A DNA stretch of 64,000 nucleotides from Eukaryota sp. GEM-RC1 (taxonomy: Eukaryota), in contig JAUFOQ010000013.1 of NCBI GenBank assembly GCA_040285855.1, positions 1,240,001 to 1,304,000 on the forward strand, written 5' to 3'. The notes under the pieces were generated by a model. That model was not told the origin of the DNA and made no database searches. It was given only the letters and a program-made list of their open reading frames with translations. The translations under genes were made by a program, and so were the position numbers. Below, in pieces: positions 3,496-48,583 of the stretch (positions within the stretch are counted from its first letter, which is position 1; each line of letters opens with the position of its first letter).

Positions 3496-3560
3496 TCCAG
3501 GATTTGATAGAATATCTCCATCGATACTCAAGCATGAACAAACTATGACGACTGGAGATG
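3496..3560 (-). pseudogene. Decayed 2A-like peptide remnant (LQSS*FVH/LSIDGDILSNPG)
   Basis: Resembles the element B leader (LQSSQFLRDLTMDGDIESNP) but has a stop, an indel, E>L and no final Pro. Confidence 0.6.
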
Positions 3561-3695
3561 TAGTTTACTCTTTGAATAACAAGCAACTAATACAAAATAC
3601 AACAAAAGATGGGATTTGATGATTAAAGCACTATTAGTAAGAATTCCAATCCAAAAAAGATCAGATAAAACTCTGAAAACACAGGTTAAATTGGA

Positions 3696-42695: not shown

Positions 42696-45600
42696 CTATA
42701 TAAAATCAAGTGCTTGCAATCCTGAGGGTCTAAAGAAGTGTTTTTCCAAATTTTGCTTTTTGTCCTTATCACGGATAGAATCGTAAAAGACAACGATTTT
42801 TTGATTATGTTCATACAAATTGTAAACATGTCTGGCATCATTTGGCAGATCAAAGATTATACAAAGATCAGCCCGAACAGAATGGTTAACCGCTAATTGA
42901 GTAGTACTGATCAATAAAACAGGATCAGTCTGTTCATCGAATATTTTCAGACTTGATGTAATCTTTCGTGGTTTTCCACCCTCTAGTGTCACAACTTTAA
43001 AAGCAACCTCAGAAACAAGCCTTGAAAGTTTCCTTACTTTTTCAACTGAATCAGTTGTAATTACAACTTTTGTAACTCAAATATAGTCAACAAGTGCTTC
43101 ACCTTGTTGATTTTTTCATCAACACTCCATCTAGATGAAAGAAACTGAAGTCTTTTCGTCGTATCAATGTCGATGGGATGAGCACTTTCTTCAACAACAG
43201 GAATCTCAACTTGTTGAACTTGTTGAGTCGATTGAACAGTTAAAGCATGTAGTTCAAGACTTCGTTGTTCGTAAATATTTTTTGAATCACAAGAGCGAAC
43301 ATCATGAACTTCTAATGGTACACCAGAAATACCAATCACAGATAATGCTGAAAGCATTAACAGTGTTCCATCCTTTTCAGAACAATGAAAGAATTTAAAT
43401 CATTGCAAAAATCGATTTTTAACAGTTGACCTGTTAACTCACCACTTGATCAATCAATAATGAATTGAATCTGTTTCTTTGGTAGTTTCAAACCGAAACC
43501 AACACAGAACCCAAATTCCGTGATGTACATTATTGTGTCATAATGCTTAACATACACTGCATCTATAATTCTGTCATCTTTGTGACAGGAGCAAAATTCC
43601 CATACAGGTTGTTCACCAAGCAGCTCCCTTTCATACAAGTCTAACTTTCGGATGGAACAAGTGCCGACAACTAGAACGAAATCGTCATAGCACTTCAAAC
43701 TTTTGAATTCTTCGTCCCGATCAATTTCAGACATGTTTAAATCCATTAATGTTGATAATTCTGAACAATTAACACAATTTTTTCATCTTCCTGCACAAAA
43801 ATGATCAACAACAGAGTCTTCGTTGCGACAACAAAACAATTTTTGCAGCAGCCATGTCAATACATTGAGAATCAAAACTGTCTCTGGCCAACGGCAACGG
43901 TAATACTTGTCGAATAGTCTTTCGTTTGTCTGTTTTTGGCTTGTATTGAATCATAAATATGGGCCCTTCAAAAGCAATCAGTATGGCCTGGTAAAGCAAT
44001 TGATGATGAAGTGTAAACATAGTCAATTGATTGTCAAATGGTTTACACTGTGGTCTATCATCATCAATACTGTGACTGAACCTTCGGAGTTCTTTATCAA
44101 TGTTGTAGACTACAAATCGTAATGTAACATTCAACACAGGAGTAGGAGTAGGAGTAGGAGTAATAGCAGAAAAAAATTCTGTATGGAGAGTTTCGACAAC
44201 GTCGTTGTCTATATTCAACGTTCCAATGGCAATTTTTGATTCAAATGAAAAAACAACATAGAAAGTTCTCATTTCTTCACGTGTAAAATTTAACATTTGA
44301 ACATTTTGTCCTAAATATTTAGCAGTATGAGAAGAGGCAGTACAATACGACTTAGTCCAAGATGACAAATCCAAAGTACTTGTAGCTACTGGTGACTGGG
44401 GCAATGCAGTAGTTTCACTAATCATGGGTTCAGGAAGGTCAGCGTTTTCGGGGATCATAGGTTCTTCAACCTTGTGTTGGGCTAAGGTAATTTCAGAATT
44501 TACTACTTCATTAAGTGTAGTACATGATGATGCACATAAAGGACACGCAGGATCAAAGCACATCAACAGGTCCTGTTCATCATTGACTTGGAAATTTAGT
44601 AACTGGAAATGATGTTTCCTTCCATTCCCATAATCCACGGTAACTGGTGGACTGTTACTTTTCAGTAAGTTGAAATCAAGAATAATAATGTTGTCATACC
44701 ACGATTTCAACACAGTTATGGGAACCTCACCTTGTTCCGTTAAATATACCAAAATACGTAATCGATTGATACATCCAAAGGTGGATTCGATTAGTAACTC
44801 ATGATAAGGCCAGTAAACATTCCAGACACGTTTTACCTCAAAAGATCCATGAATATCCAGCTCATTACTGTATGCAATTAATTGTTTGAACCTCCAATCT
44901 TGACAATGCATTGGTGTACCAACCTTGATAGATGGCTTTGCCATTTCCGAAACCAAATTGATATTGAAGTTCATGAGCCATACGATGAACAAGTATTGAA
45001 AAGAAGAAGGAAAGTCCAGGAGAATTTCTTCCAGCACGACCAGAGCGCTGGTCCAAAGAAGCAATGGAGCAATGATGAGTGTCGAGAAGGTCATCTGCAT
45101 CAGTTTGCTTTGACAAACCACAGTCAATGACAAATTTGACCCCATCAATAGTCAAGGAAGATTCTGCTATATTGGTAACAATGACAATTTTAAATTGTTT
45201 TTTCGCTGGTTTAGCCACAGCTGCATCTTGTTGGACTGAATCCAGACTTGAATACAACGGATACACACCTGGCTTCTCAGAAGAAGCTGGGATGTATAGA
45301 CCACCAGATCCACTTTTTTCTGACTCTCATACTCATTCTCAATAATATTACTGAGAGTTGTAATTTCTGGACTTCCAGGAAGAAACACGAGCAAAGTAAA
45401 TCCTGTACATTCTGGTTCAAACTGAAAAAGTTTCTGAGACAGGGAGTAATAACAGAGACATAGTCGGGCTAACGCTCTGAAATTGATACTTTTATATGAA
45501 AGAGGATTACAGTGTTGAGTGAAATAGTCGTAGTATGAGTTCACATTGAAGACAAAATAAGTGTAAATATCAATAAAATGATCGTTGAAAACCTGTTGAA

Positions 45601-48583
45601 GTGTAGGTTCAAAAATCGGAGTTATCACAAGTTTTGATATTAAGGGACTATAATGAAATTCATTTTGACGAACAAAATTCACATCAAGGACAATCAGTGG
45701 ATTCGTTCTTCCAGCTGCATGGATAGTATAGGAGGGTTCGGTATCTAAATAATTTCCTTGTGTAAGGTAATTAAAACAAGGATTAGGTTTGTCCATAGTT
45801 GCCGAACAGATTACCACTCTCAATTTTGAATCAGTTTGGGAAATTATTCTCATTTGTGCTAATAAAATGTCAATGTCACATTTTCTTTCATGAACTTCAT
45901 CCACCATGATAGTTGCAAATCGAGACAGATTGCTATTATTTGTCAGAAATTTAGAAGTGAAGGCAGCGGTTTGAACTTCGATAAATCTTGGTGAATGTAC
46001 TGGAATGTTCGTATTCTTGTTGCCTGTTCGGTATCCAGACAGAGGAAAATCACTATGACATAAATCATTGATAAAATCGGAGAGTTTTGTGGCTGGTAGA
46101 ACTCTAGGTTGACACACAATGATTGGTTTCAAAGTAACCATAACCACAACAACACCAGTTAAGACAGATTTCCCGGAACCTGTTTGACCAGAAACAATAA
46201 ACGGAATAATATTGTTGTCTTTGACATGATTTTGACCAACAACACGAAACAATTGATAAAAAGTGTCTTTTCCTTCATTAACAAATGCAATACGGCAGTT
46301 ACGTGCTTTTGAAATCAACTGAAAGCAAGAAAACACCAAGTGGAAGTAGGCGTCATTACTGTCAACTGTATTATTCCACTGTTCATATAGTGTCAAAATT
46401 TGAAGAATTTGTGTTAGTAAATCACTTTCGCGGACATAAGATTTCAAATGTGCTAATTTAGAGCATACTTTAGGAAAATCAATTGATGTAAATGTACACG
46501 TTGGTTCCTCTGGTGAAGTCACAGTGCTTGGGAAATTGTAAACATAGCGGGGAGGTCGTCTCCATTGAAGATAATGATCTAACAACATCTTGTAATCACT
46601 ATGATTTGACGCCAACCATGACAATGAGACTAAGTATTCCATTGCCTGGAAACAGAAAGACATTAAAGAGAGATCTTTGTTTTCTTTTTTTTTGTTCATA
46701 ATGGTAATGGGTACAAAATGACAGTTGGAACATGAGCATACTCATAGTTTCAATTTTGTTTTCGAAAAAATCTTGATATACAGTAAACTGATGTCGGTAA
46801 ACTTCTTTCCGTTGTACAACTTGTTTAGTTTCAGGGTCTTTAATTTCGACAATGCGGCTTTCTTCATCTGTATCCACAAAAGTATAGTGCTCGAGAAAAT
46901 GACAAAAGTTAAAAAAATCTTGAAAGTAATTGAGAAGTGTAGGACGAATCTCTGATATTATTAAAATCATCCCACATAATACTAAGAGAAGTTTGATTAT
47001 ATAGATCATCAAATCCGTCATCATTTAAAGGATCGTCTGTAGGATCGTCAGTATGTTCAAAATCAGAATCTTTGACATCAACATCAACATCAGGTATTTT
47101 GGGGGCTTCTTTTTCAATTAATTCAATAACATGAGCAATATCAAAGATTAACATTTTGAGTTTATAAGTAGCTTTTGACTTTGCAAACTTTTCAATCACT
47201 TTTTGGTTTTCTTTGTACATTTCCAAAGTAAATTGATTATTCGTACGATCATACACTTGAAGGTTGAGTTTTTTCTCCTCCACAACAAATTGCAAATGGA
47301 GCATTGTTAATAAAATGTCCAGCATAACCTCAGGACGTACCAAAACTTTAGGGTTCATATTTTGATACAAGGATGTGATACTTAATGAAACATCACTAAG
47401 TCTAAAAAGTTTGGAAGGGACATTCATTATAACTGTGACCAGGAAGAAGGCAGAAGAGACATGGAGCAATAAAAAGGCAAAACGATTCACGAAAAGAAGG
47501 TTGTTTTTGAGGACAATGGGGAGGCATCTCAGATTTGAATCCAAGAGGCATAATCGGTAAACTCACAGTAGATTCTCGATTAGGGTCACACAATTGACAC
47601 CAATATTTATGGAGGGATTCCAACGCTCCATCATAACTGAGCAAGTAATGATTAGCATCTTGTTGACATTCAATCAACTCCGATTCATAGTGTTTGGCCA
47701 TGATGTAATTTTCAATTCTCCAATTACTTGGCGTGTCACCAGGTTTGCAACACTCTTGCATAATTTGGGCCAGGAACGAGCGTCGTGATTCATTGTCTGG
47801 ATTGGGAATGACATCTGGAGCGAGATCAGTTAAGTTTTCGGATTCATCTATAAAAACATGATTCATACATGAACAAACTTGGAAACCAGGTGTTCTTCCA
47901 GATCTTAGCACTGGATGGGCAAAAGTTTCATGTGGAATACGGCAGTAACGATGCAATATGCCCATGTGGTATTTAGTTCTTTGATTATGTTTCTTTTGTT
48001 TTAGCTGAGTTTCTTCTGTTGGTGGTTCTTCTGTTAGAGTTTCTTCTGTTGGCAGTTCTTGTGTTGGCAGTTCTTGTGTTGGCAGTTCTTCTGGTAGCGT
48101 TTCTGGCAGAGATGGAGGAGGCGATGGTGACACAGAAGTTCTTCTGGGTCTCTTTACTTCTGGGGATGGTAAACGATCATGGGGACCTGGATTCTGCTCA
48201 ACGTCTCCATCGATAGAGAGATCACGTTTCCATGATGTGGACGAGAGGATAGAGCACAGAATAAGCGGAGACGACATCTTAGGACGAGGAGGGAAGCACG
48301 TATCCACACATTTCTTCAACCCACCATCCATATCCCGTGACCGTGCTATGGAAACAGTGTTTGGATGATGAGATGAAGCAATGGCGGATGTGGACGAGAG
48401 GATAGAGCACAGAATAAGCGGAGACGACATCTTAGGACGAGGAGGGAAGCACGTATCCACACATTTCTTCAACCCACCATCCATATCCCGTGACCGTGCT
48501 ATGGAAACAGTGTTTGGATGATGAGATGAAGCAATGGCGGATGTGGACGAGGCGAGGGGTGTTAGCAGTATAATAGAAGACAT
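42696..48583 (-). CDS. Element D polyprotein (~1,960 codons if joined): leader-2A | Cys/His-rich region - DEAH-box RNA helicase - unknown region - degenerate helicase C-domain
   Basis: [14 protein letters not shown] 48182-48223. Motifs [64 protein letters not shown] across consecutive same-strand ORFs. Confidence 0.78.
48234..48551 (-). repeat. 153-bp tandem repeat (2.1 copies), hairpin leader of element D
   Basis: gatgtggacgag at 48234, 48387 and 48540; hairpins 48314-48378 and 48467-48531. Confidence 0.95.

Follow-up and report, generated by a model that had tools for sequence, protein, structure and literature searches.

StopGo (2A) sequences are found mainly in viruses and only seldom in the genomes of cells, and the purpose they serve near the N-termini of proteins is an open question (PMC12338488, PMC12846837). 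It is known already that an N-terminal 2A occurs in retrotransposons and in some cellular proteins. In the non-LTR (non-long terminal repeat) elements L1Tc, Ingi, CR1, Crack, L2 and Rex1, which are of the APE (apurinic endonuclease) type, a 2A lies near the N-terminus of an open reading frame (ORF) (PMC3708506), ORF2p of Dualen/RandI joins a 2A to deubiquitinase domains (PMC13405545), and in sea-urchin NLR proteins the 2A lies close to the N-terminus of a protein that is not a reverse transcriptase (RT) (PMC4981915). Here we analyzed a window of 64,000 nucleotides from Eukaryota sp. GEM-RC1 (assembly GCA_040285855.1, contig JAUFOQ010000013.1, positions 1,240,001 to 1,304,000), in which an earlier note had described minus-strand genes that begin with a tandemly duplicated leader and a 2A motif and continue into different cargo. 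We observed this architecture in four genes, E1 to E4, and a relic of it in a fifth place, E0 (Table 1), and sequence comparison confirmed that leader and 2A form an exchangeable, lineage-wide cassette on multicopy genes, far beyond the window.

Each position of the window was scored in all six frames against D-L-x-x-x-G-D-[VI]-E-x-N-P-G-P, which has 10 fixed positions. All four 2A motifs, and also the fifth, decayed one, were recovered where they had been reported, all five on the minus strand in co-oriented modules, and 60 order-5 Markov simulations of the window gave no site of at least 7/10 and a mean of 0.27 sites at 6/10; the motifs stand far above chance expectation. The canonical form DLxxxGD(V/I)ExNPGP was seen in E1, E3 and E4, which also have the core (D/G/C/N)(V/I)ExNPGP; this core is missing from E2 and E0, and the NPDP of E2, which the earlier note had admitted as a variant, is a decayed copy. 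The fifth motif, with its 7/10 match, is what remains of a module of the E2 type, before which we found no tandem leader. A supportive upstream hexapeptide of the DLTxDG type is exact in E2 and E3, differs by one change in E4 and is a two-position variant in E1. The motifs agree with the core that experiments support and with an upstream motif of the DLTxDG type (PMC12846837), and here the 2A is flanked on either side by coding sequence of the same open frame, as in class A 2A sequences. Ribosomal skipping at these sites is predicted from the motif and is likely. The 14-mer of the E3 2A appears once in Table S2 of PMC12338488, as an unclassified entry without activity data.

A repeat search found tandemly duplicated leaders before the 2A in all of E1 to E4, as had been claimed. 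The two E4 units are 100% identical, and those of E1, E2 and E3 differ by substitutions. Units of the E3/E4 type are long hairpins (folding z −4.4 in E4, −4.3 and −4.8 in E3), the E1/E2 units fold more weakly (z −0.8 to −3.9), and two orphan leader hairpins gave z values of −3.9 and −1.7. At the DNA level the leaders of E3, a protease gene, and E4, a helicase gene, have a 19-nt hairpin cap in common, which was found six times in the window, solely in leaders or orphan leaders (the two orphans included); it shows one compensatory pair among five sequences, but in two of these many of the outer pairs predicted do not form. The E3 cap loop resembles the U1A site, but the loop is not the same in E4 and in one orphan, which makes this a weak lead only. 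Two further cores are common to the leaders of E1 (helicase) and E2 (protease) at the DNA level, and a shared core is read in different frames in the two, tentatively, as E2 is decayed. Rfam returned only chance miRNA-like hairpins for the leaders, and no hammerhead or hepatitis delta virus (HDV) ribozyme descriptor matched near any of them. Upstream of the 2A, 102, 49, 118 and 140 codons are free of stops in its frame in the raw window DNA, against at most 30 in other frames. Three of the four unit lengths are multiples of three. Since in all four genes no other frame stays open as far upstream as that of the 2A (a simple chance of 1/81 if frames were equal; per-gene resampling, which ignores the repeat structure, gave p values of 0.01–0.07), it is likely that the leaders are translated and their peptides afterwards discarded. 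The leader peptides of different types are mutually unrelated and vary from 1 to 7 repeats, and this lack of relationship suggests that the leader matters as nucleic acid. Segments just before the 2A are often hydrophobic, the best 11-residue Kyte–Doolittle mean being 0.6–2.55.

The closest homologues came from Eukaryota sp. GEM-RC1 in 10 of 10 clusters, and we treated these copies as belonging to the same genome as the window or to a near-identical one. Cluster sizes, obtained for 6 of 10 query sequences, were 14 for E4, 18 for the N-terminal part of the Fanzor, 2 for the second Ulp1 of E2 and 1 for the middle ORF of E1; the E3 type accounts for six clusters with 40 members. The E3-type, E4 and Fanzor members lie on many contigs, and the dispersed copies are 84–96% identical. 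Leader and 2A open 7 of the 13 other members of the E4 cluster, while the remaining six begin inside the cargo. A search with a 2A profile (18 of 369 candidates) gave 16 GEM-RC1 proteins, one of the window's own and one further protein of 1,899 amino acids. A combined 2A and Ulp1 profile, run over 1.84 billion representatives with the best 150 of 1,722 matches inspected, found further members; ten of its matches were identified, namely four from TZLM3-RCL (one RCL protein also has a tandem leader), one from TZLM1-RC, four from GEM-RC1 and one SENP8-like protein without a 2A. Further 2A-led genes thus exist beyond the window: the stored set, from which eight proteins judged by eye as RNA-virus polyproteins were excluded, comprises 60 proteins with a 2A-like motif (three the window's own), 57 of them with the canonical core. 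The members identified by name fall in three metamonad (Skoliomonas-like) genomes; from the names, we take the sources GEM-RC1, TZLM3-RCL and TZLM1-RC to be Skoliomonas.

In a tree of 14 2A-led Ulp1 domains and 25 hand-chosen matches without a 2A, 13 of the 14, from the three named genomes, formed one clade with long branches. Among 17 representatives the D, L, T, G and D upstream of ExNPGP were kept in 94–100%, and both flanks diverge. Using 14 leader signatures that we defined ourselves, we distinguished at least 14 leader types with 1 to about 7 repeats, and one cargo may stand behind up to four of them. The cargo that begins VTQE stands behind leaders A (14), B (3) and C (1), LSKD behind B (7), C (2), D (2) and J (1), and FVTE behind I, K and L; leader C precedes three cargoes, the same Ulp1 cargo follows 3–4 leader types, and a single leader type may precede up to 3 cargoes. 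The exchange points lie at the 2A or slightly upstream, and internal chimeras occur too (P0006, P0035). Combined together, the swaps between leaders and cargo, the shared leader cores, the open 2A frame, the multicopy families and the occurrence in three genomes bear out the proposal that leader and 2A are a portable module.

The cargo was assigned by Pfam, NCBIfam and PDB searches. The superfamily 1 (SF1) helicase of E1, the two Ulp1 domains of E2, the Ulp1, exonuclease-like and Fanzor1 domains of E3 and the DEAH helicase of E4 agree with what had been reported, but the exonuclease ascribed to E2 was unconfirmed: it has no Pfam match and no similarity to the exonuclease-like domain of relative P0032, and the word DIET was its sole basis. 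The middle region of E1 had no match in the PDB search, and the C-terminal part of E4 is unlike its relatives P0073 and P0079 (a chimera). The E3 Ulp1, which has the His-Asp-Gln-Cys catalytic motifs, the C48 profile and SENP8 as best PDB match (E 6e-15), is by sequence criteria a C48 protease. A relative of the E3-type Fanzor, P0089, matched SpuFz1 (E 6e-13) and GtFz1 (E 2e-5), and P0089 and P0098 run from the exonuclease-like domain into the Fanzor in one frame; a single-sequence AlphaFold model of P0089 reached a pLDDT (predicted local distance difference test) of 34. RuvC I of the E3 Fanzor reads DPN in place of DPG, as it does in SpuFz1 in the alignment, the alternative RuvC II Glu lies six residues before the zinc finger and the RuvC III Asp falls within the 4–8 residues past the second CxxC that are expected of a Fanzor1, both read from the translation. 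The region 3′ of the Fanzor, where an omegaRNA might lie, gave a folding z of only −1.9. The Fanzor frame breaks at an A-run between RuvC I and II (36321–36399); among the 14 of 17 relatives that were listed, 12 run into the same out-of-frame tail there and two terminate before it, without a single read-through. A search for longer proteins gave only another Fanzor family (P0265, 13 members), which is continuous at this site. The shared break is a candidate for a programmed shift, an inherited inactivation or a systematic error.

The earlier note had not mentioned that E1 to E4 are all broken by frameshifts or stops. Most breaks lie at homopolymers, host genes carry homopolymer indels of the same kind, and relatives read through most of them, as in P0073, where seven leader units, the 2A and the DEAH helicase form one frame of 1,629 amino acids. 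Judged by these comparisons, most of the frame breaks are homopolymer assembly errors. Nanopore-based genomes are described for two Skoliomonas isolates, GEMRC and RCL, and for S. litria, all of them metamonads that live freely and are relatives of the fornicates (PMC11316075). E2 is likely a real pseudogene, given its in-frame stops and its NPDP where its paralogue P0049 has NPGP. The genes had also been called apparently intronless, which holds for their coding parts, the lone intron candidate inside E3 being translated in relatives; upstream of the E2 leader, however, there is an intron-like sequence of 26 nt.

Table 1. Features of the leader-2A modules in the window (positions are those of the window)
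Feature	Position	Strand	Description
E0 relic	3493–3682	−	decayed E2-type pre-2A segment and 2A relic; adjoins E1 stop, 3′ of E1
E0 2A relic	3493–3534	−	7/10, decayed and frameshifted
E1 cargo	3699–6200	−	N-terminal region without assignment; Upf1-like SF1 helicase (AAA_11/AAA_12)
E1 2A motif	6201–6242	−	10/10 fixed positions, canonical core
E1 leader	6329–6576	−	100-nt unit, 2.5 copies; unit is 33 codons in paralogue P0046
E2 cargo	7718–10184	−	two Ulp1 (Peptidase_C48) domains, in-frame stops, likely pseudogene
E2 2A motif	10185–10226	−	9/10, decayed NPDP; NPGP in paralogue P0049
E2 leader	10324–10501	−	81-nt unit, 2 copies; two cores common with E1 leader
Intron-like 26-mer	10584–10609	−	splicing would bring ATG 10630 into the frame of the E2 leader and 2A, with one stop in between
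E3 cargo part 2	35220–37480	−	Fanzor1 (RuvC I DPN, alternative Glu, zinc finger, RuvC III) and C-terminal CCHC knuckle
E3 cargo part 1	37481–40187	−	SENP8-like Ulp1, degenerate PolB-type exonuclease-like domain (DNA_pol_B_exo1), linker, likely Fanzor start
E3 2A motif	40188–40229	−	10/10 fixed positions, canonical core
E3 leader	40305–40550	−	two 90-nt hairpins spaced 156 nt; cap same as E4
E4 cargo	42600–48181	−	Cys-rich N-terminal region; DEAH helicase (DEAD/Helicase_C); 3′ end approximate
E4 2A motif	48182–48223	−	10/10 fixed positions, canonical core
E4 leader	48234–48551	−	153-nt unit, 2.1 copies; all units fold as long hairpins that have a conserved cap; 2A frame open
Orphan E3-type leader hairpin	51318–51416	+	without 2A
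Orphan E4-type leader hairpin	51945–52047	−	without 2A

We lean towards the view that E1 to E4 belong to dispersed multicopy selfish genes in which an interchangeable tandem leader is followed by an in-frame 2A that would free the leader peptide, so that the cargo would start at the same proline whatever the leader and the number of its repeats. The leader would act as nucleic acid, as an internal promoter monomer, a copying signal or both, and its peptide would be waste. Translation would start at a 5′-proximal AUG and pass through the repeats rather than scan past them. Giardia, a related metamonad, is reported to have no ribosomal scanning and very short untranslated regions (UTRs) (PMC2583053); if the present lineage resembles it, ribosomes have to translate their way through a long structured 5′ region, and a uniform cargo could be set free simply by a 2A. 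StopGo would then release the cargo, and the genes may spread through an RNA intermediate with an RT encoded elsewhere, template switching near the 2A swapping leaders and domains. This last step is the weakest, and taken by itself we place it a little short of an even chance. Copying in trans through RNA is slightly favoured over other routes because of the co-orientation, the intron-free cargo, the swappable 5′ monomers, the mosaics, the RNA helicases and the CCHC knuckles, and because the mobile-element precedents for 2A that we read are all retroelements. A bolder version, less likely than not though with a real chance of being right, would see here a new class of modular selfish elements of metamonads. 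The leaders would be exchangeable copying or promoter modules from which the 2A decouples any cargo, with separate Ulp1, RNA-helicase and Fanzor genes acting together in trans as a distributed mobile system that replicates unlike known retrotransposons or DNA transposons, and possibly with a programmed −1 shift controlling the output of the Fanzor.

Several observations weigh against the selfish-gene view. A canonical core alone is insufficient for 2A activity (PMC3708506, PMC13405545), and the conservation of E, N, P, G and P among the relatives is fixed by the search pattern. Only one paralogue of E1 is known, the support of the Ulp1 clade (93/86) is below the tool's starred level, and the long-branch 2A-led Ulp1 of P0049 falls outside it. 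The in-frame leader units of relatives come from predicted proteins, which are biased to open frames. An Ulp1-like ORF (16 members) and a PIF1 helicase (19 members) in the window are multicopy without a 2A, so that the 2A, which had been put forward as marking such elements, marks only some of the mobile genes. Pfam searches of the window ORFs (73 ORFs and 77 shorter ones from unannotated regions) gave no RT, transposase, integrase, Rep or capsid, and no RT with endonuclease lies downstream of a 2A as in non-LTR elements. For E1 to E4, whose ends are approximate, no poly(A), target-site duplication (TSD), terminal inverted repeat (TIR), shared 3′ end or telomeric repeat was found, nor did Rfam or the hammerhead and HDV descriptors reveal a ribozyme near the modules; since RT, transposase, terminal repeats, poly(A) and ribozymes were not found, mobility is something that we infer. 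The intron-like 26-mer, in frame upstream of E2, speaks against an RNA intermediate if it is part of the element, and DNA transposons commonly carry Fanzor, PIF1 and Ulp1 as passengers.

The same translated leader and 2A might instead be moved as DNA, by non-autonomous elements like MULE (Mutator-like element), CACTA or Helitron or by gene conversion that the Fanzor drives, and the hairpins would then be DNA origins or transposase sites. The intron-like sequence of E2, the lack of a poly(A), the presence of a Fanzor1 and a multicopy PIF1 in the region, the host WD40-like fragment between E2 and E1 (seen by eye, with no Pfam match) and a weak inverted match that flanks the 2A-less Ulp1 ORF (2 of 200 shuffles) all speak for it, but no TIR or TSD was found around E1 to E4 and no transposase was matched; no Rep lies beside PIF1, whose copies are unlinked to the 2A families, and we hold the DNA route to be rather unlikely. 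A host gene family, duplicated in the ordinary way, in which the hydrophobic N-terminal 2A region serves as signal and recoding element (for dual targeting or to damp expression), seems improbable to us. It would account for the many hydrophobic segments before the 2A and for retention in three genomes, and the sea-urchin NLR 2A is a precedent (PMC4981915, PMC13405545), but leader peptides unrelated among types and repeated 1–7 times are not expected of it, nor, tentatively in view of the decay of E2, is a DNA core that E1 and E2 read in different frames; the Fanzor fusion, the orphan leaders, the mosaics and the dispersed 84–96% copies fit selfish elements.

An integrated and scrambled large DNA virus or Polinton-like virus whose genes use 2A would bring together Ulp1, ubiquitin-specific protease (USP), SF1 and SF2 helicases, PIF1 and Fanzor, which resemble viral accessory genes. 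The Atlas clusters nearest to the E3 Fanzor do include Nucleocytoviricota members, and locus-tag spacing of listed cluster members places an E3 piece no more than 30 locus tags away from 7 of the 14 E4 members, where 3.0 would be expected (p 0.018, with no correction for 12 tests). On the other hand, this is the only one of six family pairs that is even weakly clustered, the other five being unlinked, and no capsid, protein-primed DNA polymerase B (pPolB), packaging ATPase or integrase was matched by Pfam among the window ORFs. A search of IMG/VR with the 2A pattern gave 119 stretches, and 11 cargo proteins had no match among 118 stored loci (the 79 loci listed are all on contigs of at most 10.2 kb); other searches of viral and metagenome contigs found no relatives of the modules. 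We hold a viral origin to be quite improbable. A single fixed giant element was rejected from the same locus-tag spacing, which showed no fixed linkage of the families at other loci, and the "large" element of the earlier note is not supported. Least credible of all, and very improbable, is the passive copying of a motif that looks like a 2A and has no function, or an origin of the repeats as artefacts of assembly; indel errors are frequent in the assembly and the E4 units are 100% identical, but the motif is kept across three genomes while its flanks diverge, the E1 to E3 units differ by substitutions, and the repeats recur with other copy numbers at other loci.

Other features of the window were also noted. 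The 2A-less Ulp1-like ORF (40698–41663, within a region at 40698–42200 (+)) has no tandem leader and stands head-to-head with E3; the weak inverted match is 40662–40695 against 42434–42465, an imperfect palindrome lies at 42424–42523, and its Atlas leads were all below 0.9. The PIF1 helicase (55224–57761 (+)) has no Rep (HUH) domain, is stand-alone here and in its listed relatives, and is followed by an array of 27 copies of a 15-nt unit (57885–58284). Immediately upstream of E4 is an intron-free USP (48734–50468 (−)), and the segment 50600–52050 is a mosaic of short E3, E4 and USP pieces with a diverged Fanzor fragment (51109–51273) and the two orphan leaders; a 127-nt unit is repeated three times at 52605–52986 without a 2A. 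Decayed 3′ parts of non-LTR retrotransposons of the RLE (restriction-like endonuclease) type, with a zinc knuckle and RLE-like words seen by eye and 65–85% mutual identity, lie at 1900–3290, 14300–15700, 18500–19250 and 60090–60770. A link of the modules to these relics was rejected, as the region upstream of E0 has no similarity to them. At 16320–17070 there is a 750-bp element like a MITE (miniature inverted-repeat transposable element), with 28-nt terminal inverted repeats (96%).

Housekeeping genes of the window have GT-AG introns of about 30 nt in which the branch site adjoins the 3′ splice site, and the window is eukaryotic. Homopolymer indels, such introns or both were seen in the genes for alanine dehydrogenase (442–1577), a tandem adenosine deaminase (32713–35120) and a proteasome ATPase (61100–62400). 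An alternative genetic code is unneeded because the breaks in host genes are explained by introns or homopolymer indels. Strong intron-like sequences outside recognised host genes are found at 6883–6934, 10584–10609 and 52242–52269 (−), each preceding a same-strand leader by 85–300 nt. A tRNA-Trp(CCA) gene (10793–10864 (+)) is head-to-head with the 5′ region of E2, at a distance of 163 nt to the candidate ATG; upstream of E1, E3 and E4 there is no tRNA, and the other tRNAs of the window are at 93–164 and 27894–27965. The host-like WD40 fragment, which resembles DCAF7, is at 6622–6900 (+).

What is at stake is whether a mobile gene can, by means of an N-terminal 2A, retain a nucleic-acid signal in frame and discard the peptide, and genes in which leader type and repeat number vary while the cargo stays constant are a natural series for a direct test of this idea. 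The families also offer many new 2A peptides, a new family of structured repeats, possibly an undescribed mode of gene mobility, and two multicopy Fanzor1 families from metamonads, one of them fused to a SENP8-like protease. In the literature searched, which lay outside subscription journals and Repbase, interchangeable translated tandem leaders with a 2A on RT-less protease, helicase or Fanzor genes were not found. GEM-RC1, Skoliomonas and TZLM are absent from four supplements of PMC12338488, and four supplements of PMC13405545 gave no match for these peptides or genomes; a preprint consulted for the 2A literature (bioRxiv 10.64898/2026.09.24.754024) has supplements that could list such peptides.

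Variable numbers of tandem 5′ monomers that are replaced between lineages are also a feature of the 5′UTR of rodent L1 and of the A-modules of Dictyostelium TRE5-A, but these are untranslated promoters of RT-coding elements and lack a 2A. With the 2A non-LTR elements the modules share the position of the 2A near the ORF N-terminus (PMC3708506) and, with Dualen/RandI, a ubiquitin-like protease in the same polyprotein (PMC13405545), but here no APE, RT or RLE follows the 2A, the cargo is Ulp1, helicase or Fanzor behind swappable tandem leaders, and no poly(A) or TSD was found. The RLE retrotransposons NeSL and Utopia likewise have an N-terminal Ulp1-like protease; the ORFs described here are without RT and RLE, and the text of that account accessible to us mentions neither 2A nor tandem leaders (PMC4640811). 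Terminons, which are giant Penelope-like elements (PLEs), resemble the locus in their co-oriented head-to-tail modules, exonuclease-like ORFs, captured host pieces and structured repeats (PMC6431247), whereas in the window no hammerhead, PLE-type RT in the array or telomeric repeat at the junctions was found, the repeats lie 5′ of the ORF and are apparently translated, and a 2A is present. The E3 Fanzor has the rearranged RuvC described for the Fanzor1 OMEGA nucleases of Spizellomyces and Guillardia (PMC10711439), and differs from them in its fusion behind a 2A, an Ulp1 and an exonuclease-like domain, in its C-terminal CCHC knuckle and in the break shared with its relatives; no transposase was found with it. 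As in the sea-urchin NLR proteins the 2A precedes a protein other than an RT (PMC4981915), but here variable tandem repeats stand before it and the modules are dispersed and multicopy. Set beside these systems, a swappable leader-2A cassette on protease, helicase and protease-Fanzor genes is probably an undescribed kind of selfish element.

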